A stretch of 64,000 nucleotides of DNA from NCBI RefSeq assembly GCF_013315695.1, contig NZ_CP054353.1. One strand, given 5' to 3'. The notes under the pieces were generated by a model. It was given only the letters and a program-made list of their open reading frames with translations, was not told where the DNA came from and searched no databases. Shown in pieces: positions 26,229 through 40,750 of this stretch. This DNA is from Escherichia coli (lineage in GTDB: Bacteria > Pseudomonadota > Gammaproteobacteria > Enterobacterales > Enterobacteriaceae). Made by a program: the position numbers and the translations under genes. Positions within the stretch are counted from its first letter, which is position 1, and every line of letters starts with the position of its first letter.

Positions 26229-26529
26229 CGCATTTTATCTGCCTGTACGGCAGTGAACGGTATAAAAATCGAGTTTTTCTTTCGGTTGGCTTTCTAAGCT
26301 GCCTGTACGGCAGTGAACTCAAATACTACACGTTTAGCTCGTTGTTGATAAAGAAAAATCATCTCATTTTCCTGCCGCACCCTTTTTTATTCTTACCTTC
26401 CAGCACCATTAATTATCAACAACTTACCTTCACATCCAAAAATAGGGTTTTCACCGTTCCACCCTACAAACAAAAAGTCCGTAACCTCTTTCGAGATTAC
26501 GGACTTCACCAACCTACCTAACAATTAGA

Positions 26530-29157: not shown

Positions 29158-29328
29158 TGTCAGTTATCATCTTCGGTTACGGTTATCGGCAGAACGCCCT
29201 GCCGCTGACAAGAGCTTATTTGCCTGACCAATCTACTCCACATGATAGATAACTATCATTTATAACATCTCATTGATTAGTCTTTATTTTTCATTGTGTT
29301 ACAAATAACAGCTCTGTCAAAAACAGCG

Positions 29329-29355
29329 AAATTAACTACACCATTAACTACACCG
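29329..29355. repeat. 27-bp direct repeat AAATTAACTACACCATT(A/G)ACTACACCG, left copy (right copy 40368-40394); candidate integrase binding or att sequence
   Basis: two copies, one mismatch, each followed by clustered CGAACAA motifs (29356-29395 and 40400-40510). Confidence 0.5.
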
Positions 29356-30293
29356 TTTCACGAACAATATCGAACAACCACGAACAAAGATCAACACGCT
29401 TTAACCGTTATCATTTTCCGGCTATCCGTTATGAAGCTGGTGGATGTTCCCCGATATGGGGATCCCCACCTACCGGAATTTTTGCCAGGTTAAATGTTAA
29501 CCTCTGCCCTGTTAACATTTTTACCAAAAAGGTAGTTAACATTTTTTGCACGCAACCAGATGAATCATAAAGAAAAAATCAACAACAACGCTTCATCAGG
29601 CAGTTAACATGTTAACTACTACGAAACGGTAATTTTTTCTCTGCGTGAGAGGGGGCGCGGTGTCCAGCTTATTCGTTGTTCGTGGCTAACCACTCCCCCC
29701 CCATGCCGGATTTTTTTTCCGGTTAACTGTTAATCAGGCTGGTGGGTTTTACATACCCTTGATCACCGTAATGATGATCCAGATCTGCACATTTCCACCA
29801 ATGGTGGAAAAGCCCACAGCAGGCCGCCCAGCCTCCACCAATGGGGTAAAAGCATCAACCGTAACGAAAGTCGTTATGGTTGCCACCGATACCCCAAATT
29901 TGGGTATCACGAGTAAGCCCCAAAATCTGGGTGTTACTCTTACCACCCAAACTACGGGTAGTTTCCGTAGTTTCATGGTCGAGTTGCAGATCTGCAACTC
30001 CCCCATTAACCACAGGCGAATTTCCGCCTTCGGTCATTCCTTAATCATCTGCGTAATCATAATGATTATTCAGCAAGCGCAATTTTGCGCTTTGCTTAAA
30101 GTTCAGCGAGTTACCGCGCCGACTTCCTCAAATTGAGGTTTCCGAAAATATCAGCGGGTTAGCGATTAAGCTGATCATTAATTAAACTGCGAAAATTTCG
30201 TAGTTTGTGACTGTCTTTCAGGCAGCTTGTTAACAGTCCTCAGAAGCGAGGGATGTAGCCACCCATTTTTGGTCCGTCGGGAATATCAACCAG

Positions 30294-30575
30294 TTACCGC
30301 CGCAACCGCTCCGGCTTCTTCCAGTGGTACGTTATTTTCTCCTTCTCCCGATACATCTCCACGCGGCGACGGTAGGCCAGCAACTCAAGAACTCTGGTTC
30401 GTATGTTGCGCATATCCACGCCATTAAGTTCTATACCATCACGGCGCATCACCTCCGCAACAACACGCGCATAATTTTCAGCGGTCACGCTGTCCGGCTG
30501 CGTGGCCTGTTCGTCAACCTGCTGGCTGATTCCGGCAACGCGGCGGATTAATCCCAGTATTTCGGCTTCTGTCAT
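30294..30575 (-). CDS. hypothetical protein (93 aa) next to the left cos site
   Basis: ATG with G-rich SD; no family recognised. Confidence 0.45.
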   Translation of the reverse strand: MTEAEILGLIRRVAGISQQVDEQATQPDSVTAENYARVVAEVMRRDGIELNGVDMRNIRTRVLELLAYRRRVEMYREKEKITYHWKKPERLRR

Positions 30576-30610
30576 TGTGCCCCCATCGTTCTGATAGTCT
30601 GGTGTCGTCG

Positions 30611-30840
30611 GGTCCTTCCTGGAATTATGGCCCGTTACGGGGCGGCGACCTCGCGGTTTTTCGCTATTTATGAGATTTTTTGAGGGGGTGGTTGTTGTTT
30701 AATTGTTTGGTATATCTAATTGATAAGTAAGGTAAAAATAAAATAAATACAACAACCTTACGATGTATTTTGATGTCATTAATGTGAAAAAATTCAATGA
30801 TATCAAATGGTTTTGTAAAAACACATGGTTGTTGTATCGC
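30611..30840 (+). other. lambda-type cos site, copy 1 (cosQ-like, cosN GGGCGGCGACCT at 30640-30651, cosB-like region pointing rightward)
   Basis: GGGTCCTTCC..GTTACG-GGGCGGCGACCT-CGCGGTTTTTCGCTATTTATGAG closely matches remembered lambda cos; three GGTTGTTGT repeats (30690, 30749 inverted, 30828) as candidate TerS sites. Confidence 0.6.
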
Positions 30841-31008
30841 GTATTTGATGGCGTAACAGAAAGTGATTTTTAACTTTACCGCTCTGTAACTACGGATTAT
30901 TCCATGCTGGCACGGAGAACGGCTACGGCATGACGCCACCCAGCCTATACAGCACAGTAAAGCCGATAAATTGTTAATCACGCGCAGCAATGCGTGTGAT
31001 TTTTGCAC

Positions 31009-31206
31009 ACTTCCGGTTAACGGGTACGATGTCCGGTTTTAGTGTCTGTTTTTTGCGCATGTCCGGTTCATAGAAAGCATGTTTTTATATTTTTCATATG
31101 GTTAACTTGCAGAGAAACCGGACATGGATCCCGGAAAATTTTCATAAATAGTGAAAACGCGCGAGGTCGCCGCCCCGTAACGGGTCCATATGCCGGAAAG
31201 GACCCG
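31009..31206 (-). other. lambda-type cos site, copy 2, inverted (cosN on the minus strand at 31164-31175, cosB-like region pointing leftward)
   Basis: minus strand reads GGGTCCTTTCCGG..CCCGTTACG-GGGCGGCGACCT-CGCGCGTTTTCACTATTTATGAAAATTTTCCGG, near-identical to remembered lambda cosQ-cosN-R3; three ATGTCCGGTT repeats (31029, 31059, 31116 inverted). Confidence 0.65.
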
Positions 31207-31208
31207 TA

Positions 31209-31233
31209 AAAAAAAGCCGGATTTCTCCGGCCT
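31209..31233 (-). terminator. rho-independent terminator ending the island capsid operon
   Basis: minus strand GGCCGGAGAAATCCGGC followed by T8, directly after the 137-aa gene stop. Confidence 0.55.
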
Positions 31234-31237
31234 TGTC

Positions 31238-31651
31238 TCAGATGGTTTTCAGTATGCGATCGATGTCGCCGTCATCGCCCTGGTTTCTGCCATCGTACGC
31301 CATGCCAGCTGATACGGCTTGCGGGCTGTGCATGTCCATAAAGTTTTCAAAGGCTGCGGTAAGCTCTGGTGCAACCTTTGGGCGCTCCTGCTCTATGGTC
31401 ATGTTCAGGATTTCACGAGCATTATCGACGCTAATACATGGCACGTTTGCCATTGCACGTAACAGCGGCTGATAGTCGTTATGTTCATGAAGCGCCATAA
31501 TCGCATCAGCGCGCGGCTTGTCCTGTTCTTCCAGTTTGTTGAGTTGATATACGGCCTCGTAGGTTGATAAACCTCTGTCAGCCATTGCCCGCGCTTCTGC
31601 TTTAAATTTACTCGCCAGCGGTAGCGCCATGATGCTTTCATTCGTTGCCAT
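31238..31651 (-). CDS. hypothetical protein (137 aa), last gene of the capsid operon
   Basis: ATG with AGGGGAA SD; no family recognised; candidate packaging-redirection factor by position only. Confidence 0.5.
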   Translation of the reverse strand: MATNESIMALPLASKFKAEARAMADRGLSTYEAVYQLNKLEEQDKPRADAIMALHEHNDYQPLLRAMANVPCISVDNAREILNMTIEQERPKVAPELTAAFENFMDMHSPQAVSAGMAYDGRNQGDDGDIDRILKTI

Positions 31652-31663
31652 CGTTTCCCCTGC

Positions 31664-31999
31664 TTATCGCGCCAGCGGCTGAACGGATACGCCAGAACCC
31701 GCAAAGGCGGCGCATTTTTTCGCGTCAGTGTCGGCGCTCTCAGGCCAGTTTACGGCGGCGATATTAAATATCCCCGTCTTGTAACACTGTGCTGATTTCT
31801 GCTTTGACGTGTCCACGGGGTACGAAGTCAGATAAACAGCCTTGCCAGATTCCTGACCATCCCACGGCTTAAACTCGCCATTGTCCGCCAGCATCAGCGG
31901 GGTAAATTCCTGAATAACGCCAGCATCAGCGGCAAAATGTACCAGCGTCGTGGATACCTGCTGACTGCCTGCAAATAACTCAATGTATGGAGTGTCCAT
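31664..31999 (-). CDS. head decoration protein, lambda gpD-like
   Basis: 111 aa; shares TPLMLD, WDG, YK(S/T)G.F, WPE, AFAG motifs with remembered lambda gpD (110 aa). Confidence 0.65.
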   Translation of the reverse strand: MDTPYIELFAGSQQVSTTLVHFAADAGVIQEFTPLMLADNGEFKPWDGQESGKAVYLTSYPVDTSKQKSAQCYKTGIFNIAAVNWPESADTDAKKCAAFAGSGVSVQPLAR

Positions 32000-32011
32000 A
32001 GAATCCCCCCG

Positions 32012-33067
32012 TTAACCAATTTTGACGGTAACAAATTTGCGAATATCTGCCGGAACCGGCTGCGGTGCGCTGTGCGTCTGCACGTACTCAATCGCCGGAT
32101 CGCCGTCCTCAATCCAGTTTTTCGGGTAAAACATGTTTTGCGTTGCGCCCGTTCTTACCGCTTCCTGTTCCAGGATCGCACCATAGGCCACCAGCCCTTT
32201 ATTGTTGGTGTTGCCCAGGACCAGCAAATCAGGCTCAAGGAAATATTTTTCTGTGCCGTCGCTGTCAGTGTATTTGCCGGAATAGACGATAAGGGCCAGA
32301 TCACCAAGATAGCCTTTAAAGCTCACCACTTCGCCCAGGTTTTTACATGCCAGCTCTGCGGCGGATTCTGAACCACGGGAGAGATCGTACAGTTCACGGA
32401 ATTTTTTAAAGCTGCGTAACATGCGCCATACATCAACGCCCATAATCATGACGTTTGCGGGGCAACCTGCCTGATCTGCGTATAGCTCAATGTCATAGAT
32501 TGGGTCGTGTATGTCTTTGTCCTGCTCTGACCATTTTTTACCGTCGGCCTGCTCTATGATGTTTTTTTCCGGTATCTTCCAGTCGATTTCATAGCGCTCT
32601 ATGCCTTCGCCCTCAATGATGTTTTTTCCGGTCGTTACCGCATTTACCGCCAGCCATTCCACGCGCGCTTTAATGGCGTTTATCTGGCGGCGCATGTTGC
32701 CAGTAATCAGGCGCATACGGCGGTAGGTAGGGTCGTTAAGCTGTGCTGGATCTTCTCCAGCCATGCGCATTATTGTTTTTAATGGATCGATTTCGTGTTT
32801 TGGCTTCATGTAGCCAGGGCGAATAATGCTTGTTTCGTACCCTTTATCGCGCTGAACCTGGCTACCCACCATAGGCGAACAAAACGCCGACATAGTGACT
32901 TCTTCAATATCCAGGTTATCTAACATGATGTCCTGTGTGTTGAATGTCGCCACGTTCGGGAAAAACAGCGCGGTAAACAGCGGACTGAATTTAAATTCCG
33001 CAATATCCTCGCGATTCAGGTACGCAAAAAGCTGGTTAGTGTTAAGTGCTATTGCTTTTACTGTCAT
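32012..33067 (-). CDS. major capsid protein, lambda gpE family
   Basis: 351 aa; collinear similarity to remembered lambda gpE (FKF.PLF..LFF, PGY(V/M)KPKHE, DP.YRR.R, YPKNW..GDPA, SAP); start overlaps the upstream stop (TAATG). Confidence 0.85.
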   Translation of the reverse strand: MTVKAIALNTNQLFAYLNREDIAEFKFSPLFTALFFPNVATFNTQDIMLDNLDIEEVTMSAFCSPMVGSQVQRDKGYETSIIRPGYMKPKHEIDPLKTIMRMAGEDPAQLNDPTYRRMRLITGNMRRQINAIKARVEWLAVNAVTTGKNIIEGEGIERYEIDWKIPEKNIIEQADGKKWSEQDKDIHDPIYDIELYADQAGCPANVMIMGVDVWRMLRSFKKFRELYDLSRGSESAAELACKNLGEVVSFKGYLGDLALIVYSGKYTDSDGTEKYFLEPDLLVLGNTNNKGLVAYGAILEQEAVRTGATQNMFYPKNWIEDGDPAIEYVQTHSAPQPVPADIRKFVTVKIG

Positions 33068-33273
33068 TATTCACCCCCGTGAACCTGATTCATACCCAGC
33101 GCCGCGCGTAAATAGGCGCGTACCTGCCAGCCTGTTGACGGCTCAACCATCGCCAGCGGATCAAGTCCTGCCGCAATGCCTGCTTTTACGTTCTGCTGGT
33201 GGCGTTCCTTGAGCGCCTTCACGATGTCGGGGCTTATGTACACCGAAACACCGCCTTTTTTCTCTTCAGCCAT
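33067..33273 (-). CDS. hypothetical protein (68 aa), first gene of the capsid operon
   Basis: ATG with AAGAGG SD; translationally coupled to the capsid gene. Confidence 0.5.
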   Translation of the reverse strand: MAEEKKGGVSVYISPDIVKALKERHQQNVKAGIAAGLDPLAMVEPSTGWQVRAYLRAALGMNQVHGGE

Positions 33274-33302
33274 AGTAAGAAATTCCTCTTTGACTTAAAA
33301 AA

Positions 33303-33357
33303 TCATAACTGGATGTTCATCCAGTTATGATTATAATCATGATTGCATTTTGTGCAA
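33303..33357 (-). promoter_or_regulatory. promoter of the island capsid operon with a 28-bp palindromic operator
   Basis: minus strand TTGCAC-N16-TATAAT immediately followed by perfect palindrome TCATAACTGGATGAACATCCAGTTATGA. Confidence 0.5.
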
Positions 33358-33527
33358 TGATATTGAGTTGCGTTGCAAATTATGAAATTATTATCCCGAT
33401 CATGTGTGTCAGTGCACCAAAAAACCTCATATGCAAAAGCCCGATAAGCCACCTCTGACCTTATCGGGCTTTTTTTGGGCGCAAAAAAGCCGGATTGCTC
33501 CGGCTGTGTGGTGTGGTTCTGGTATTC

Positions 33528-33776
33528 CTACTCTGCTAATTTGCTCAGCCCCATGTCTGCGTAAGTGCGATTTACTGCATTTCTCAGGTCTGCATAGTTC
33601 TCCGTTGGCGGCTCCGGTGGCCTCTGTGCCTTCCTGGAACATTCCAGCCGTCGCATCGTGATGTGATGCCGTTCCTTGTCTGTCTCCACCAGCATCATGA
33701 CTTCACCCCATCGCGCCGCCGCCCTCCGGTAAAATCCTTTCGCTTCGAGTTCTTCCGCTATGCGGTCATGTACCAT
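33528..33776 (-). CDS. small regulator, possibly PerC/Pch-family transcriptional activator
   Basis: 83 aa from ATG 33776 with GAGGGGG SD; LEAKGFYRRAAARWGEV resembles the PerC-family core as remembered; weak call. Confidence 0.35.
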   Translation of the reverse strand: MVHDRIAEELEAKGFYRRAAARWGEVMMLVETDKERHHITMRRLECSRKAQRPPEPPTENYADLRNAVNRTYADMGLSKLAE

Positions 33777-33786
33777 CGTCACCCCC

Positions 33787-34197
33787 TCAGAACGGAATAT
33801 CATCACCGTAAGGGTCATCGCCTCCCGCTGGTGGCTGATTACCCTGTGCGCCTGTGGTTTTGCGTCTGTTCCCGCCAGGACGTGCCGCACGGGCACTGAT
33901 TACGCTGTCTGCAATAACCTGATAACCCTGACGCGTCTCCCCGTTCTGTCCGGTCCACTGGCTTACCTGCATCGTGCCGGATACGCTGGCAACGTCGCCT
34001 TTTTGATGTTTAGCCAGGAAGTCGGCCTGCTTACCAAATGCGATGACCGATAGCCATAACGTCGCCTGTCCGTCCTGTGCCTGACTGCATGGCAGTGATA
34101 CCGCCATACGCGCCAGCGTCATCGGTGTGCCCTTGCTGGTCTGTTTTACCTGCGGGTCGTCCACCAGCCGACCGTAAGCCGCTATCTGTGCTGTCAT
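33787..34197 (-). CDS. single-stranded DNA-binding protein (SSB-like)
   Basis: 136 aa; OB-fold pattern (W..V.AFGK.A, KGD.V.V.G, W....G..R) and C-terminal acidic tail ...DDPYGDDIPF typical of SSB. Confidence 0.65.
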   Translation of the reverse strand: MTAQIAAYGRLVDDPQVKQTSKGTPMTLARMAVSLPCSQAQDGQATLWLSVIAFGKQADFLAKHQKGDVASVSGTMQVSQWTGQNGETRQGYQVIADSVISARAARPGGNRRKTTGAQGNQPPAGGDDPYGDDIPF

Positions 34198-34445
34198 GAT
34201 TCCACCTCTCCGGTTTTAACGTTGATGGTTGTTACCTGTTCCGCTTCGGCAATCTCCCGTTCTGTCAGCGTGGCAAAGTTTGCCGCCGCCGTGGTCATGA
34301 ATGCGCTTATCAGGTCGGGATGTTCCTTCGCGTATCCTTCCCGCGTGTGGCGGTCTATCGTTCTGATTGCCACCTTTAAGGTGTGCTCAGTCATGTCTAA
34401 CGCTTTATATTTTGGCTCTGTTCTGTCTCTGCGTGTTCTGGTCAT
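34194..34445 (-). CDS. hypothetical protein (83 aa)
   Basis: ATG 34445 with GAGGTGG SD; stop overlaps the SSB start (ATGA). Confidence 0.4.
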   Translation of the reverse strand: MTRTRRDRTEPKYKALDMTEHTLKVAIRTIDRHTREGYAKEHPDLISAFMTTAAANFATLTEREIAEAEQVTTINVKTGEVES

Positions 34446-34469
34446 TTGCCACCTCAATTTATATATATA

Positions 34470-34805
34470 GAAACATGTGCGGGTTATGCGGGTTATTGGG
34501 TTATCTTAGCGTGCTAACCATTTTTTATCCTTTTATATCAGTATTTTGCAAAACACCCTGTTTATTATTTGCCCACCACGTAACCCGCAAAACGCTCAAA
34601 ATAACCCGCAAACGGGGTTTTTTCTGCGGGTTACGCATGACTGTCCGGTGTTACTTCAGTTATTCGCCTGCGGGTTATAATCGTGCTTTTGCGGGTTATA
34701 AATGCCCTTTTGCGGGTTACGTGCGGGTTATTGGTTTCCTTTATATTCATGCACTTAATACACTTATACACAGGATAACCCGCATAACCCGCAATTTTTT
34801 TCCTC
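34470..34805. repeat. iteron array, candidate replication origin of the island
   Basis: at least 12 copies of GCGGGTTAT / ATAACCCGC in both orientations within ~330 bp of AT-rich DNA, directly downstream of the primase-replicase gene. Confidence 0.65.
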
Positions 34806-34815
34806 ACACAGGGGA

Positions 34816-36939
34816 TTAATCTTCATCATCAGGCTGGAACATCAGCACGTAAAAAACATGCTGCTTACCCCCAATCTTGCCCAGCGCCTTTTTTTTGTAT
34901 CGGCGATCGCTTCCCTTCTCCAGCATTCCGGCAGCATCCAGGGCACGCGCAAAATGCGCCGGATTAAATCCCTTCGCTATCTCACTCTCAAACACGTGCG
35001 GGAACGTGTAATAGCGCATCTCGTCATCTTCGTTGCGAATGCTCCCTTTTCTGTATCCGGCAAGCTCTTTAATCGGTAAATCACGCTCATCTGTATTGGG
35101 GTACGGAAGGTAGCGGCTAAACCCAAACGACGACAAAAACGCCTCAGCCTGTTCAACCATCTGTTTAAATTCCCTGTTACCCGTGCCGAACTCCTTCACC
35201 CAGGCATTAAAGTTATGCTGTATCGCGTCGCGGCATTCCTGCACGACCCAGCCAGTTACATGACCGGAAAGCACAAGCGCGGCCTCCAGTATGGCGAAAC
35301 GTTCACCCACGCGGTGGACCTGCTCGCCGTAGCTCTCCGGTATCAGGTTGCGCCACCGTTCGCGGCATTCCCTTACCGTATCCTTTGCCTCCTGCTGGTG
35401 GCCTGCCAGCCATTTAACCCACTCACGACCCGCCGCCCCGTGATTTGCTGTCCAGGCATCCTTTAACGCGTCAGCATGTTCCTTACCGTTGCTGTATTCG
35501 TGAAATTTCGTGGCTTTTTCCATCGGAACGTTAAGCAGTCGGACAAGCTGCCCCGCCTTAACTTTTATCCCCTCACTTTTGAGGAATGTCTCAACGTCCA
35601 TTTCTCCGGTGCTGATTGCCACCGTTCGCCAGTGTTTGATCTCCCTGTTGCCGCCATCCTTCGCCCCCTGCAATTTCCCTGAACCGTTAAACAGCGTATA
35701 AGCAGACGTTGACACTTCCCGCGCATTTCCGGCCTGGCCTATCTCATCCAGTGGTAAAAGCCCGTCATTATGGGCCTCGGCCTCATTGGCAATACCTAAC
35801 GCCGTGCCGTACCAGGTCAGCCGCTGCGCGTCCGGCTCTCCCCATAAACTTGATGCGATGTTCTGCGTGGTGGTCTTACCTGCCGATGACTGTTCGAAAA
35901 GATGCACCCCGAAGCCGTCAGCACCCACAAGGCCAATTAAAGGCGCTGCCAGTGACGTTGCCACACCCAGCATCATTGAGGCATTACCGCCAGCCAGCCG
36001 CGCCACACTCTCGCGCCAGCCCTCCGCCGTACCCGCCACGGAATAACCGTTAATCGCGGCGCTTTTTCCGGTAAACAGGATCGGTTTTTCAGAATCACCA
36101 ATGATCGAACCGTCCGGCATGATGTACGCGCCAAAATGCCAGCCCGTTGTTGTGCTTAACTGCCATTCCTCATGGCTTCCGCTTAACTGCATCCAGTCCG
36201 CCAGGATTGCCCTGTATTTGCCGTTGGTTGTCACGTTCAGCCCGTGATCTTTAAGTAACCGCCAGCCGTCACGGTCGCCGATACCACCACACGGGATCGC
36301 CATTGTGATGACTTCATGATTTGCTAATTTTTTCCAGCGCATGACGCGGTAATGCTCTTTACCGATCGTCCCCGTTCCCAGTAGTTCAAGCGGAGAACAT
36401 AACCACGTCTCAGGCCGGATAATTTCGCCTGACTGCTTATCCACTTTGGGCGTTACCCAGAAAACACCATCGGCGCGACTTTCAACGCGTGGCTTTAATT
36501 CGTCATCGCTATGGCTTCCGGTATCTTTTTTCTTTACCGGAAACTCAATAACCAGACCATCAGAAAGATTCTGCCGCTCACGGGCCAGATATTCGCGCCA
36601 GTTCTCCACCTCCTGACCGTGCATTCCATCAGGGTAAAAATTTGCATCCTGTACGCCTGCCGCCGCCAGCTTCTGACCAATCGCCTTGATCATTACTGGC
36701 TCAAGATGTCCGGCCCTGAATATGCGTACTGATTTTCGGCCTTCCGGCACAATTTGCAGCTTATCCAGTTCGGCAAGTTGTTGCTCTCCAAGCCAGACAG
36801 GAGGCACGTTATCGCCAGCCAGTCGCCCGTCCTGTTCCTGCCACTGTTTCGCATGTGCCCAGGCATCACTACCCGCAAAAATGATGACTTCCGTCATTTT
36901 GTCACGTGGCTGGTGTTTTAAATTTGGCGCTTTTTTCAT
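34816..36939 (-). CDS. primase/replicase (P4 alpha-like or PICI Pri-Rep-like)
   Basis: ~707 aa from ATG 36939; Walker A-like SSAGKTT; position next to the iteron ori; ATG overlaps the upstream stop. Confidence 0.75.
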   Translation of the reverse strand: MKKAPNLKHQPRDKMTEVIIFAGSDAWAHAKQWQEQDGRLAGDNVPPVWLGEQQLAELDKLQIVPEGRKSVRIFRAGHLEPVMIKAIGQKLAAAGVQDANFYPDGMHGQEVENWREYLARERQNLSDGLVIEFPVKKKDTGSHSDDELKPRVESRADGVFWVTPKVDKQSGEIIRPETWLCSPLELLGTGTIGKEHYRVMRWKKLANHEVITMAIPCGGIGDRDGWRLLKDHGLNVTTNGKYRAILADWMQLSGSHEEWQLSTTTGWHFGAYIMPDGSIIGDSEKPILFTGKSAAINGYSVAGTAEGWRESVARLAGGNASMMLGVATSLAAPLIGLVGADGFGVHLFEQSSAGKTTTQNIASSLWGEPDAQRLTWYGTALGIANEAEAHNDGLLPLDEIGQAGNAREVSTSAYTLFNGSGKLQGAKDGGNREIKHWRTVAISTGEMDVETFLKSEGIKVKAGQLVRLLNVPMEKATKFHEYSNGKEHADALKDAWTANHGAAGREWVKWLAGHQQEAKDTVRECRERWRNLIPESYGEQVHRVGERFAILEAALVLSGHVTGWVVQECRDAIQHNFNAWVKEFGTGNREFKQMVEQAEAFLSSFGFSRYLPYPNTDERDLPIKELAGYRKGSIRNEDDEMRYYTFPHVFESEIAKGFNPAHFARALDAAGMLEKGSDRRYKKKALGKIGGKQHVFYVLMFQPDDED

Positions 36940-37235
36940 TTCTGCTCTCTCCACGCGGCAATCATGTTTTTCAGTTCCTGTAGTTTTTTATCCACATCCA
37001 CACGTGACACATGGTTATTTCTGGAAGTCGGGATTTCCCGCCTGAATCTGCTAATAAAGATCTCCACGTTCAGCGAACTATGAAATGAATAGCCATCACG
37101 AATAAAATACACACGGTCAAACATCAGTTCTTTTACCGTTACTCTGTTGCCGTTCTTATCCAGATAAATAGCGCCGGGGATAATTTTGGGGTGTGCATAA
37201 CCGCTGGCAGTCAAGCCAGATAAATATGTTCTCAT
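36936..37235 (-). CDS. hypothetical protein (99 aa)
   Basis: ATG start; coupled to the primase. Confidence 0.45.
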   Translation of the reverse strand: MRTYLSGLTASGYAHPKIIPGAIYLDKNGNRVTVKELMFDRVYFIRDGYSFHSSLNVEIFISRFRREIPTSRNNHVSRVDVDKKLQELKNMIAAWREQK

Positions 37236-37241
37236 GATTAT

Positions 37242-37562
37242 TTATCCCCGATTTGAATCAGTATTCGCTTTCTTTATAGCATTTAATGCATTTGTGGCAT
37301 TTTCAATGGTGCACCGTAACGAAATATCAAACTGCCCAAGCATTGCCAGTAACAAACCGATATTACCCATATCAATGCGCATGGCCTTTTCGTCATATTC
37401 CTCATTTTCTGACGCATACCACATCAGGCTACCAATTGACGCAATACCCATTGATATATTGTCAGTAGCCCCATCCGCAGCGGAATAAACTTTTTTAGCA
37501 ATATCATGCTCACAGTTAAAATGCGGATTAATCAGGTACTGGTAATTGGTCATGTCAGGCAT
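37242..37562 (-). CDS. hypothetical protein (106 aa)
   Basis: ATG start; first gene of the leftward operon. Confidence 0.45.
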   Translation of the reverse strand: MPDMTNYQYLINPHFNCEHDIAKKVYSAADGATDNISMGIASIGSLMWYASENEEYDEKAMRIDMGNIGLLLAMLGQFDISLRCTIENATNALNAIKKANTDSNRG

Positions 37563-37839
37563 GGCACACCCCCTGACGAATACGGGCGGCGAATACCATC
37601 ACGCAGCCAGCCGGGGATTGCTGGCGTGCTTCCTGTTCGCTGCTGGCCTCAATGGTAATCACGCGCGGTTGTGCCGTGCTCAGGGCGATAAAACGCCAGA
37701 TGTATTTATTCAGGTTGTGCGAGTCCCGCCCTTGCGGGTGTGTGGTATGATTTAACATAGCTACCTCGATACTGTTGCTATCGTTGGTTGTTAGACGCCC
37801 TGCATGTGTTGCGAGCACTGCGGGGCGTTGCTCTTTCAG

Positions 37840-37885
37840 GTGTATTTCACCTTTGCTTTTTAATTTACTCACTGGTGAAATACAC
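37840..37885. promoter_or_regulatory. operator-like perfect 12-bp inverted repeat GTGTATTTCACC-N22-GGTGAAATACAC in a divergent promoter region
   Basis: lies between the divergent 106-aa gene and the small + strand gene. Confidence 0.45.
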
Positions 37886-37951
37886 TTCAAGCCTTTTTTT
37901 ATCATTTTTTTTGCGTATACTGACATACACCAATTTTTAGGAGATCCAGAA

Positions 37952-38131
37952 ATGGCAACTGGTGCAAAGAACGCAAAATCACAAATGACAACTGTCAGAA
38001 TCCCACATGAAGTAATGGATGATATTGAGCAACTTAAAGAACCTGGCGAAAGTACCGCTGGTTTTTTAGTTACTGCCGCAAAAGGCGAGATCAAACGCCG
38101 CCAGCGCCGCAAGGCCAAAGAATCAGAATAA
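37952..38131 (+). CDS. small DNA-binding protein, possibly ribbon-helix-helix (59 aa)
   Basis: ATG with AGGAGA SD; TTVRIPHEVMDDIEQL resembles an RHH beta-strand/helix; basic C-terminus. Confidence 0.4.
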   Translation: MATGAKNAKSQMTTVRIPHEVMDDIEQLKEPGESTAGFLVTAAKGEIKRRQRRKAKESE

Positions 38132-38188
38132 TCACTATCAGCGCCGTGGCGTGAGGTACTCCGGCGCATTGCTTTACAGGTCAGTACT

Positions 38189-38398
38189 ATGAGCAAAAAA
38201 CACCGATCAGCAGATGAGATTTTTGCAGAACAACGAAGATTGCTTTTGCAAAGTATCATTTCACGCCAGCAAGAGAAGGCGCGAGCTAAACAAATGCCAC
38301 CAAATACAGAACCAGCGCCTACAAGATTTGCGCTTGATGATTTTCTCGATAAACACCCCAGGGTAATGAAAGCAAACAAAAACCGCCCACCAGCCTGA
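38189..38398 (+). CDS. hypothetical protein (69 aa)
   Basis: ATG start; followed by a terminator at ~38441-38468. Confidence 0.35.
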   Translation: MSKKHRSADEIFAEQRRLLLQSIISRQQEKARAKQMPPNTEPAPTRFALDDFLDKHPRVMKANKNRPPA

Positions 38399-38440
38399 TA
38401 GCGGCTATCATCCCCGTGCTTATGTTTAGTGTTTCCAAAC

Positions 38441-38468
38441 TGGCGACCTCCCAAGGTCGCCTTTTTTT
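38441..38468 (+). terminator. rho-independent terminator after the rightward small-gene pair
   Basis: GGCGACCTCCCAAGGTCGCC followed by T8. Confidence 0.55.
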
Positions 38469-38488
38469 TATGTGCCATTGTCACCACC

Positions 38489-38698
38489 TCAAGCGGCCTT
38501 GCCTGAATTAATGCGTTCGCGGTTTTTGACCCACGCCACAACCTCAGACTTAACCCAGCCAACAGAACGACCGCCGAGACTGATACGGGAGGGGAAGCGG
38601 CCCTGCTTTTCCATCTCGTAACGAGTTGTGCGGCAAACGCCTGTTAGCTCTCTGCATTCTTTTTCGCGGATTACGCGATCTTCATTTATTTCACGCAT
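38489..38698 (-). CDS. alpA: AlpA-family transcriptional regulator / excisionase-like
   Basis: 69 aa from ATG 38698; helix-turn-helix pattern (CRELTGVCRTTRYEMEKQGRFP...GGRSVGWVKSEVVAWV) and position next to int. Confidence 0.65.
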   Translation of the reverse strand: MREINEDRVIREKECRELTGVCRTTRYEMEKQGRFPSRISLGGRSVGWVKSEVVAWVKNRERINSGKAA

Positions 38699-39107
38699 AC
38701 AAAAACCTACATAAAAATTACGTATATAAACTTTTCTCTTAGCTGTAGATATATGAGATCGGATATTACTTAGATTCTTTTTCACCTCTTAAATTAAAAA
38801 CACAACCATGCTAAAGGCTTTGTTCGCTAAGGTTCGTAGAAGCTCGTTAGTGTTTAAAATCGTGTCACGAGTTTTTAAGCGACGCAACAAAAAATGTCGT
38901 TATTTGGCATGACACCTGAATTACCTCATTAAAAACAAATAGATAAACCATCAGGTGTTGGAACAATCAAGAAACAGAGAATAAGAACTAAGAAGAAGAC
39001 ATTTCAAATTTTTTCAATACTTGACACATATAAATCGTCGATATTTGCCGATATTCGACGATTTATTTTAGAGGGCCATTTTTCGCAAGAAAAACAGCCG
39101 TAATTTG

Positions 39108-40346
39108 TCAAGAATTTTGGGAGTAAATTCGCGGGGTCATAACAACGATTTTTTCATCATTGTTCTGGAGAAGCTCGAGACGCTCAACCCATAGATTAAG
39201 AGCGTCACGTTTTGCATCGAGATAACGGGAGTGATTATAGACTCGTTGCATTCCTGGCAACTGGTGCGCGGTTAGCTGCTCCACTACATGAGGATCCACG
39301 CCTAAATCGTTCAGCATCGTTGTAAACGTGTGCCGGATGTCGTGCAACGTCCAGGGGGCTTGATTAATGCGTCTGTGTGCCGTTCTTCCGTACTCTGATA
39401 CAGATGATTGCCCTTTCAGTTCTCCGAGTAATAAGCCCGTGTGTCGGTTCTGCTCCACCAGCTTCGTTACGAACGGCAAGATCGCTTCCGGTATTGGCCT
39501 GAATATTGCTACCTTCGTTTTGCTGTGTTCTTTCGGCACAGTCCAGAGCATTTCTTTAAAATCCCATTCCTGGACCTCAGAGCGTCTTAGCTCAGTGGTA
39601 CGGCATCCGAAGACAATCAGGAGGCGAATCAGGGCGCTGTAGTACGGTGTGTAAATTTTTTCATCCAGGGCGCGTAGTAATTCCCCAAGCTCCTTGTTTG
39701 TTAGTACGCGCTCGCTTATTTCTGCTTTTTTCCCAACATCACCTACAACCATATCATCTAGAACGTTGGTAATTGCGTAGCGTCGTTTGCGGCAGTACTT
39801 AAGCGCCTGCTTGCATACCTGTAACAAAAATCCTGCTGATACCGGATTACGCATAGCAAGCTGATCAAAACAGGTCAGCCAGTGGCGTAGCTCGCATTTT
39901 TCCAGCGGCATAGCACCAATATGGCTGATTATGTGTGTATTGATCCGGCTTTTCAGAGATTCGTAATCTGTGCGCTTTTCCTTCGCGTACGATTCAAGCC
40001 AGTAAGTGAGCGCTTCCTTAACCGTAACAGGTGATAACGCTTCCTGTACGGTGTGATTAAGCTCATGGCGTGGATTTTTACCCTCAGCAAGCCAGGCGCG
40101 ACACTGCGACGCTTTTTCCCTGGCTGCTTTCAGGCTCAAATCTGGATAATTTCCCAGCCTCAGACGTTCAGGGGCTACCTTCCTGCCTGTTCCGGCCCTG
40201 TAAGTGAAATACCAGGTTAACAGGCCATTGGTTGAATGCCTTACGCTAAGGTTGCCACCATCATTAAAAAAGGTGTTTTTTGTGGTTGGTGATCCGCTTA
40301 ATTTTCGTAAAAGAGTGTCGCTAAGTCTATGAATTGCCCTGCTCAT
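39108..40346 (-). CDS. tyrosine site-specific integrase (P4-type)
   Basis: 412 aa; C-terminal catalytic motifs (R..TELRRSE, HDIRHTF, Y near the C-terminus); at the island edge. Confidence 0.9.
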   Translation of the reverse strand: MSRAIHRLSDTLLRKLSGSPTTKNTFFNDGGNLSVRHSTNGLLTWYFTYRAGTGRKVAPERLRLGNYPDLSLKAAREKASQCRAWLAEGKNPRHELNHTVQEALSPVTVKEALTYWLESYAKEKRTDYESLKSRINTHIISHIGAMPLEKCELRHWLTCFDQLAMRNPVSAGFLLQVCKQALKYCRKRRYAITNVLDDMVVGDVGKKAEISERVLTNKELGELLRALDEKIYTPYYSALIRLLIVFGCRTTELRRSEVQEWDFKEMLWTVPKEHSKTKVAIFRPIPEAILPFVTKLVEQNRHTGLLLGELKGQSSVSEYGRTAHRRINQAPWTLHDIRHTFTTMLNDLGVDPHVVEQLTAHQLPGMQRVYNHSRYLDAKRDALNLWVERLELLQNNDEKIVVMTPRIYSQNS

Positions 40347-40750
40347 GTTTCGAATTTCCGGTCATCAAAATTAACTACACCATTGACTACACCGAGCATC
40401 GTACAAGGGCGAACTGTGACGAACAAGGGCGAACAAGAAAAACGAAATTATCCTTTATAATCATAGAAATAAATGAGATACCTACACCATGACGAACACC
40501 CACGAACACTAACTGATAAATAACTATCATCTATCGTTGGCATCAGCGACATCTGTCACATTCCTGTCAATAGCGTTAACTGCTTCAAATTTTTGATTCA
40601 TACCTGCCCCCTGGCCCCTGTCAAATGCTTGACGGCTCGCCCTAATTCTCTAAATTGTATTTCTAGAGTTGGCGAGGTTTTGAACAGCCCCCTCTCTGAC
40701 CCCGGTTTATTCCATCTTACTTGTATAAGATTTGCGAAGGATGTCGAAGC

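Follow-up and report, generated by a model that had tools for sequence, protein, structure and literature searches.

A probable captured cos site and an array of palindromic modules at the left end of an Escherichia coli phage-inducible chromosomal island

The island and its non-coding left end

The window, that is, the whole 64-kb stretch of Escherichia coli chromosome analysed here, has the gene order infA, tRNA-Ser, clpA, clpS, island, yljB, cspD. The island (29243-40530, about 11.3 kb) is inserted between clpS and cspD and carries nearly all of its genes on the minus strand. Our subject is its left end. There, a non-coding stretch of 1034 bp leads from attL to the last late gene and contains, at 29480-30250, a cluster of GTTAAC-centred palindromes, which we call the GTTAAC block, followed by a run of short hairpins. 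We consider it probable that this island end consists of a captured cos site of the HNH type and of an array of palindromic modules.

The junctions of the island were set by comparison with the empty cspD-clpS site of K-12, and a 17-bp core is found at both ends; the region had initially been annotated as the left end of an island, and this placement stands. Just inside both ends lies an imperfect direct repeat (D1; 73 nt, 73% identity) whose copies are probably arm-type sites of the integrase, which has an Arm-DNA-bind_3 domain (Pfam). The Pfam matches in the island are AlpA, the integrase with its arm-binding domain, DUF927, PerC, SSB, capsid E and decoration D. Further genes are an Icd-like gene, DUF4222, a Nu3-like 137-aa protein and the 93-aa last gene (ORF93), and this gene content is supported by the annotation of an almost identical island. 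The replication origin (34470-34800), just downstream of the DUF927 primase-helicase gene, consists of an AT-rich core surrounded by 12 GCGGGTTA iterons, which occur on both strands. In sister islands the origin iterons are AAAGTGGG or the P4-type TGTTCACC in place of GCGGGTTA.

By these features the island is a Gram-negative phage-inducible chromosomal island (PICI) of the EcCICFT073 type. It has a tyrosine integrase, att repeats, AlpA, an iteron origin behind the gene of a primase-helicase, a length between 10 and 20 kb and co-directional genes, and two exact copies of the lambda cosN represent helper-type cos sites, with the HNH-type block as an extra. The gene set is shared by the Gram-negative PICIs typified by EcCICFT073 (PMC6092414; 10.1101/2022.07.18.500453). 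The features which delimit the non-coding end are the following.

29243-29259, no strand assigned: attL core TGATAGATAACTATCAT, right-hand copy at 40514-40530; from direct repeat D9 and the empty K-12 site
29324-29396, plus strand, mirrored at 40363-40435 beside int: probable integrase arm-type sites, two copies of ATTAACTACACC and CGAACA repeats; direct repeat D1
30294-30575, minus strand: ORF93, last of the late genes, assigned to phrog_1561 (of unknown function); in PICIs and capsid-forming PICIs (cf-PICIs) it is conserved next to the non-coding end

The homologues of ORF93 amount to 1027 matches, all annotated as hypothetical. The initial annotation had seen no credible open reading frame (ORF) next to it, and we agree for 29260-30293. 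The ORFs of 125, 85 and 60 aa found there match no Pfam or PHROG family, those in the hairpin region are interrupted by 1-nt indels among homologous islands, and substitutions are spread evenly over the codon positions (4/4/4 and 3/8/5). A protein-coding hairpin region was therefore rejected. The same applies to a decayed HNH gene, as tblastn with six HNH and neighbouring proteins gave nothing significant.

Similarity of the GTTAAC block to phage cos regions

All palindromes and hairpins listed initially were found again, and both the enrichment of the half-site GTTAACAT and the folding of the hairpin run (see below) are far above chance. The half-site occurs seven times in the window, five of these within 29494-29616, whereas shuffled sequences contain 1.9 copies on average and 5 at most (none of 100 shuffles reaches 7). 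The two palindromes are AAATGTTAAC-N9-GTTAACATTT at 29492-29520 and AGTTAACATGTTAACT at 29602-29617. The block and its surroundings are composed as follows.

29492-29703, minus strand (the phage-forward direction): probable captured cos region of the BP-4795 / Stx1a / Stx2c type, recognised by phage homology, alignments, conservation footprint and a motif-versus-background test
29494-29501 (minus), 29511-29518 (plus), 29535-29542 (plus), 29603-29610 (plus), 29609-29616 (minus): five GTTAACAT half-sites, candidate TerS-binding (cosB-like) repeats
29631-29665, minus strand: invariant G-rich block of 35 bp, AATTTTTTCTCTGCGTGAGAGGGGGCGCGGTGTCC, 34 of 35 positions identical to BP-4795
about 29651-29660, minus strand: putative cosN and adjacent A-tract, aligned to the annotated 10-nt cos-site of phiP27, the exact cut position being inferred
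29695-29702, no strand assigned: C8 run, inverted partner of the G-rich block, kept in all the phages; the phage homology ends there
29436-29443, plus strand: Chi site (GCTGGTGG) in the left copy of the duplication that brackets the block; repeats D5 and D6
29715-29750, plus strand: right copy of this duplication (TTTTCCGGTTAACTGTTAATCAGGCTGGTGGGTTTT), with a Chi site at 29738-29745; repeats D2, D5 and D6

We compared the region by blastn with 50,697 phage records. Only 29492-29667 was matched, at about 80% identity and by 93 lambdoid phages (E 2e-34), which are mostly phages converting to Shiga toxin (Stx) production of the types Stx1a, Stx2c and Stx2a, plus BP-4795. The identity between island and phage region is about 80% over 175-210 nt. 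The matching sequence of BP-4795 and vB_EcoS-705R7 occupies the interval between the HNH gene and terS, the gene for the small terminase subunit TerS, and it has the same HNH/TerS position in Salmonella phage FSL SP-016. The whole intergenic region from HNH to terS is present in 92 of 94 phage records. As to the phage neighbours, TerS belongs to Terminase_2, the HNH protein to PF01844, and the large terminase subunit TerL is present. The gap between HNH and terS is also where the cos site of HK97 is located, the HK97 record beginning at the cut with terS at nt 50.

An alignment of the window with BP-4795, FSL SP-016 and phiP27 reveals a common order. From the HNH stop codon onwards one finds a G-run, a G/C-rich core, the GAAAAAAT A-tract, about 20 nt and (G)TTAACATGTTAAC; on the minus strand of the block the G-run, the G/C-rich core and the A-tract are followed by the five half-sites. 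The 10-nt cos-site annotated in phiP27 aligns to 29651-29660, and in FSL SP-016 the same conserved block is found 25-60 nt upstream of terS. The A-tract within the invariant 35 bp is of the kind bound by the TerS of HK97, which recognises a G and an A-tract at +15 to +29 from the cut (PMC11331095). Given its homology with the cos regions of lambdoid phages that depend on HNH, the GTTAAC block is most likely a captured, cis-acting cos site with TerS-binding repeats and not an RNA gene. We infer that 29631-29665 carries the putative cosN together with the proximal TerS contact and that the GTTAACAT repeats are candidate cosB-like accessory TerS sites.

The pattern of conservation points to a function as well. 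Between island and BP-4795, the half-sites (38/38), the 35-bp block (34/35) and the C8 run (8/8) are identical or nearly so, as against 79 of the remaining 131 positions (60%; Fisher p = 1e-7 and 8e-6), and the same footprint is seen over 71 distinct phage and satellite sequences. Motifs that are kept at about 20% divergence, while the spacers have drifted to 60%, argue for purifying selection within the satellite lineage. The initial view that the region is functional sequence rather than junk is upheld.

The layout of the block is reminiscent of lambda cosB, where repeated elements in the order R3-I1-R2-R1 lie between the nick site and terS (PMC9026076). In the GTTAAC block, the half-sites likewise follow the core in the direction of terS and, in the phages, separate the putative nick site from that gene; the likeness is one of sequence only. 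There are five 8-bp half-sites in two palindromes as compared with three 16-bp R sites in lambda. With HK97 and phiP27 the block has in common the G/C-rich core, the A-tract and the terS start, with the HK97 cut 50 nt upstream of terS. Unlike lambda, HK97 and phiP27, which have Nu1 or Terminase_4, the phages related to the block have a Terminase_2 TerS, and the consensus WATCAANNNNTTR of the integration host factor (IHF) is not found in 29480-29720 at up to one mismatch.

A hint to the descent of the repeats comes from FSL SP-016. There the ATG of terS stands inside a near-palindrome, GTAAACATGTTAACA / AACATGTTAAC (975-1005; ATG TTA ACA = MLT), about 25 nt past the cos core, and TerS site and translation start of terS therefore appear to overlap. 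The TerS of BP-4795 starts with VLTTQKRK about 200 nt further on. Taken together, these two starts suggest that the proximal palindrome is the ancestral terS start or TerS site, and that the BP-4795 lineage has presumably multiplied it. The same facts could be read differently, namely that the GTTAACAT repeats are operators for a regulator of terS, or relics of duplicated terS starts, and not cosB elements. The position of the start codon within AACATGTTAAC fits this, the repeats do resemble duplicated terS 5′ ends, and in HK97 the site bound by TerS is the A-tract beside the cut (PMC11331095), so that the repeats might serve something else. However, the island has no terS to regulate and has nevertheless kept all five half-sites perfectly. 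Moreover, a standard cosB has its repeats between cosN and terS (PMC9026076), an arrangement which is also displayed by one of the lambda-type cos sites of the island, cos B, with its three copies of ATGTCCGGTT. In our view operators or relics are improbable, and we retain the repeats as candidate TerS sites.

Lambda-type cos sites and Chi sites

The two lambda-type cos sites are located 0.9-1.5 kb inward from the GTTAAC block.

30609-30680, plus strand: lambda-type cos A, with an exact copy of cosN (GGGCGGCGACCT) at 30640-30651
31029-31212, minus strand: lambda-type cos B, convergent with cos A, with an exact copy of cosN at 31164-31175
31116-31125 (minus), 31059-31068 (plus), 31029-31038 (plus): ATGTCCGGTT repeats of cos B, on the terS side of cosN

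The exact copies of GGGCGGCGACCT at 30640 and 31164 lie within inverted arms of 72 nt (30609-30680 and 31135-31206) and are 512 bp apart. Over 184 nt cos B is 94% identical to phages of the PhiR12 type. The AT-rich gap of about 500 bp between cos A and cos B holds only an ORF of 114 aa without family match in Pfam or PHROG and no Rpp gene; in related islands a gene annotated as TerS (Rpp-like) sits between both lambda-type cos sites. PICIs are known to carry helper cos sites (PMC6092414) and EcCICFT073 has two of them (PMC6739421). Judged from sequence, the present island appears to carry three cos sites from two terminase families.

Yet another type of cos site is found at the same left-end position in two other islands, the cf-PICI L009 of E. 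coli CFSAN064036 and L008, a PICI at tRNA-Ile. Both have an 83-nt segment of the phiP27/ST64B type, with 92-95% identity to the cos-site of phiP27 and to the sequences at which the genomes of SfII, ST64B and SfI end.

Chi sites are numerous, with 10 in the 11.3-kb island and 23 in the window, where about 2 are expected. Those of the left end (29436 and 29738, plus strand) are oriented to be met by RecBCD entering from the cos at 30640. In islands with the phiP27-type cos (L008, about 7115), a Chi site of opposite orientation follows a 123-nt hairpin module (see below) and again faces the free cos end. Inverted matches that extend beyond the Chi octamer link 29733-29746 with the alpA-proximal 38386-38399 (perfect, 14 nt) and 29427-29444 with 39454-39471 in int (near-perfect, 18 nt).

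Distribution of the block

The block is present in 1286 of 5426 complete E. coli genomes and occurs as two alleles with almost nothing in between. The prophage allele (75-85% identity) is found in about 1240 genomes and the satellite allele (at least 90% identity) in about 49. Of the 109 IMG/VR loci with the core, 105 are phages and four are satellites resembling the island of the window. We also asked whether capsid type tracks cos type and rejected this: ORF56 of BP-4795 has no relationship to the protease-capsid fusion that the E. coli 042 island encodes, and four of five block-bearing satellites have lambda-E capsids.

Several of our findings weigh against the block being a cos site in use. 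It is optional and, in satellites, rare. In most sister islands, which were found via the 93-aa gene, 29752-29697 is joined straight to 29500-29452 and the block is absent; in the window it is enclosed by an imperfect duplication of 35-50 nt, both copies of which include a Chi site. In CEA601S, the closest genome, the block occurs only once, and hence a resident helper of the BP-4795 type is lacking. The missing IHF consensus departs from lambda cosB, and the HK97 precedent places the TerS site at the A-tract. Finally, the putative nick site is placed by alignment to the cos-site annotated in phiP27, the 109 IMG/VR loci and 94 phage records being prophage-derived with ends uninformative for its mapping.

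The first of these points could mean that the block is a dead scar of recombination, left by prophage DNA which came in by illegitimate or homologous exchange and is unused by the island. The bracketing duplication, the rarity of the satellite allele, the two lambda-type cos sites already in place and the lack of a matching prophage in the closest genome are all consistent with a scar. Against it, half-sites, core block and C-run are all intact at about 20% divergence with spacers down to 60%, as expected under purifying selection. Furthermore, in the E. coli 042 island, which occupies the same att site, the block is the sole recognisable cos in the 6.6 kb examined (the int-proximal part excluded). 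We therefore regard a scar as unlikely and keep to a captured cos site.

The hairpin array

Between the block and ORF93 the initial annotation had listed CCACCAATGGTGG (29796-29808), GATACCCCAAATTTGGGTATC (29888-29908), AAACTACGGGTAGTTT (29949-29964), GTTGCAGATCTGCAAC (29983-29998) and AGCAAGCGCAATTTTGCGCTTTGCT (30072-30096). All five are there, and at least seven more are also present.

29792-30207: about 12 short perfect or near-perfect palindromes, at 29792-29810, 29856-29882, 29888-29908, 29911-29939, 29949-29973, 29981-30000, 30009-30034, 30054-30068, 30072-30096, 30126-30138, 30158-30175 and 30183-30207
29883-30005, no strand assigned: 123-nt module of four hairpins, common to other E. 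coli PICIs and a cf-PICI
30054-30068, minus strand: palindrome of the TGAAT-X5-N3-X5'-ACGCAGA module, whose arms covary (AATCA/TGATT, GGTCA/TGACC, GGTGA/TCACC)
30099, 30147 and 30282 (span 30099-30299), plus strand: three copies of A(A/T)NTYCARCNRGTTAVCG, which resemble the IHF consensus and adjoin three hairpins

The third of the A(A/T)NTYCARCNRGTTAVCG copies is a perfect WATCAANNNNTTR and overlaps the stop codon of ORF93. Folding of 29780-30100 yields -123 kcal/mol for the plus strand and -141 kcal/mol for the minus strand, as compared with means of -74 and -92 for shuffled sequences (z about -10 on both strands).

In the blastn search of the 50,697 records no phage matched the hairpin run. 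Parts of it are found as separable modules in 1471 of the 5426 E. coli genomes, and between islands the modules are duplicated or inverted relative to their neighbours. The 123-nt module is present in 65 IMG/VR stretches, and in L008 and L009 it adjoins the cos of the phiP27 type. The array lies between the last late gene and the cos site, on the last-packaged side, in all contexts. It is a conserved feature of PICIs and cf-PICIs, apparently undescribed before; nothing relevant was found in the literature on small RNAs (sRNAs) of PICIs. In L009 (6566-7125) two direct copies of the 123-nt module bracket a partial GCGGGTTA-iteron origin, with the phiP27/ST64B-type cos about 80 nt to the left. 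This looks like the insertion of a cassette by recombination between modules. The left end of our island has only one GCGGGTTA, and at this end the iterons AAAGTGGG and TGTTCACC are missing from the islands that use them at the origin. A second iteron cluster similar to the crr of P4 was rejected, since the left-end motif is constant while the origin iterons differ across islands.

Comparison of module copies indicates that self-complementarity is maintained under selection. In the 123-nt module one C-G pair is replaced by U-A in five sequences, and GATACCC/GGGTATC has become GATCCCC/GGGGATC in one. In the TGAAT-X5-N3-X5'-ACGCAGA module compensatory changes affect three of six pairs and 98.8% of the cells are paired, in a set that had been pre-filtered for at least 4/5 complementarity. 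These changes lend mild support to a function at the level of structure, of RNA or of DNA, which is possible for the hairpin run. Our best guess, held with low confidence, is that the array provides the late transcript with a structured 3′ end, or that it acts as an insulator in front of cos, attP and int.

A number of observations weigh against this reading of the array. The sample covers E. coli-level diversity, which is low, so that the covariation rests on few events, and the pre-filtering of the TGAAT set works in the same direction. Both strands fold equally well. The asymmetries of G-U versus A-C conflict, and an assignment of the strand by wobble was rejected with G-U counts of 10 (plus) versus 14 (minus) and individual cases that disagree. 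Within the array no hairpin is followed by a U-run, hence the hairpins are not canonical terminators. Inversion of modules fits strand-independent roles at the DNA level as well as it fits RNA.

The region had initially been proposed to be regulatory or to encode a structured RNA, possibly an immunity RNA as in P4. For the GTTAAC cluster this is superseded by the homology to cos regions, and the hairpin run, where a structural role in RNA or DNA is possible, shows neither a coding nor an Rfam signal. The CI immunity RNA of P4 is a non-coding structured stretch in a small satellite of a temperate phage. An RNA of this kind, or an sRNA derived from a 3′ end, would agree with the extremely strong folding, with the compensatory stem changes including a few G-U intermediates on the late-sense strand, and with a weak sigma-70-like site (29748-29775, plus strand) which is directed into the hairpins. 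On the other hand, the covariance-model search that had been proposed yielded nothing but noise: no Rfam family matched at E ≤ 1 over 25 kb, nor at E ≤ 10 over 1.5 kb, and by these two scans a known RNA family was rejected. Strand and terminator evidence are unfavourable as described. From island to island the modules occur shuffled, in duplicate or inverted, and one RNA gene would not withstand such rearrangement. An immunity RNA of the P4 type in particular is contradicted by the AlpA/DUF927 character of the island, which is not P4-like and in which the P4 core genes sid, psu, delta and alpha are not annotated. An inverted-repeat scan revealed complementarity of the hairpins to the early region only via Chi-containing 14-18-mers and none of the seqA/seqC type. 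We consider that an RNA gene for the region as a whole is very unlikely.

The main rival to our reading of the hairpins is that the palindromes are DNA-level binding sites for proteins which work together with cos or att, such as IHF-like proteins, ORF93 or packaging-termination factors on the cosQ side. This would explain why, with three different kinds of neighbouring cos, the array is always found on the side packaged last and why its function is apparently independent of orientation. The IHF-consensus-like repeats, one of them perfect, and the arms, which covary symmetrically around variable A/T-rich centres as in operators, also suit such sites. Yet every palindrome has a sequence of its own, and one protein could therefore not account for them all. 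For ORF93 there is neither a recognisable DNA-binding domain nor an annotation, and the helper phages have the HNH gene and not hairpins at this position. On balance protein sites are rather doubtful.

Proposed mobilisation of the island

We suggest that the captured cos site and the hairpin array could operate as follows. A helper of the BP-4795 type, equipped with HNH protein, Terminase_2 TerS and TerL, would cut at about 29651-29660 and would package concatemers of the island through attP in the leftward direction. As the lambda-type sites at 30640 and 31164 are present too, two unrelated terminase families could mobilise the island. The hairpin array would stabilise the 3′ end of the late minus-strand transcript or insulate it from cos, attP and int; it would also be the DNA that is packaged last and injected first. 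Four island units amount to 45.1 kb and five to 56.4 kb, as compared with 57.9 kb for BP-4795, which is compatible with the packaging of concatemers reported for Gram-negative PICIs (10.1101/2022.07.18.500453).

A more speculative extension, which we put forward tentatively, is that the left end of E. coli PICIs is a modular cos landing pad where packaging sites of unrelated terminase families are exchanged, here two of the lambda Nu1/A type and one of the HNH/Terminase_2 type, in sister islands one of the phiP27 type. The hairpin modules and the oriented Chi sites might then be a new satellite-specific structured element for the end that is packaged last and injected first.

Comparison with known systems

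The GTTAAC block resembles the cos sites that EcCICFT073 and SaPIbov5 have derived from their helpers, and at the level of sequence it agrees with the cos of HNH-dependent phages. EcCICFT073 belongs to the same family (int-alpA-pri/ori-capsid) and has helper-phage cos sites near the end opposite int (Fillol-Salom et al. 2018, 2019; PMC6092414, PMC6739421). Its two copies of the lambda-type cosQ/cosN correspond to the sites at 30640 and 31164 of our island, where the rpp gene between them is missing. In contrast to these sites, the GTTAAC block is not of the lambda type and comes from HNH/Terminase_2 phages; it lies past the last gene, at a distance of about 1 kb, and has retained the repeat array of the phage. 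SaPIbov5 differs in its host, S. aureus, and presumably in an unrelated sequence and in having a single type of cos. The likeness is that SaPIbov5 too is a PICI with a helper cos whose cleavage needs HNH, TerS and TerL, according to Quiles-Puchalt et al. (2014), as cited in 10.1101/2022.09.08.507074.

The hairpin array may also be compared with repetitive extragenic palindromes (REP) and bacterial interspersed mosaic elements (BIME). Those with IHF sites (the reiterative ihf BIMEs, RIB, and repetitive IHF-binding palindromes, RIP) are clusters of short palindromes at the 3′ ends of E. coli operons. Similarly, the palindromes of the island, some with an IHF-consensus motif, are found just downstream of the last gene, which is a resemblance only: there is no sequence similarity to REP, and the modules of the island are confined to satellites and far more diverse.

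Satellites with helper cos sites are already known. What the island would add is a PICI-borne helper cos from a phage group hitherto unreported for E. coli PICIs, joined with two sites of the lambda type. If this is true, one satellite could use several helper lineages, Shiga-toxin phages included, and the spread of the PICI would be linked to the induction of such phages, as the HNH group includes many Stx1a and Stx2c phages. It is an open question in the field why some islands hold more than one cos site (PMC6739421), and the answer we propose is breadth of helpers. The comparative footprint further offers a testable map, consisting of core block, A-tract and five half-sites, for a widespread and unstudied type of phage cos.

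Two minor observations concern other parts of the window. The similarity of the 137-aa protein (31238-31651, minus strand) to head-maturation-protease families is confined to their C-terminal part (phrog_53, 494-567 of 583), and the protein may be a scaffold like Nu3. Taken with the genes for the E-type capsid protein and the D-type decoration protein, it suggests that the island could shape its own heads. In the gap between tRNA-Ser and clpA (26231-26318, minus strand) there are two type I-F CRISPR repeats (Rfam CRISPR-DR4; 50 and 30 bits), which form a minimal orphan array.

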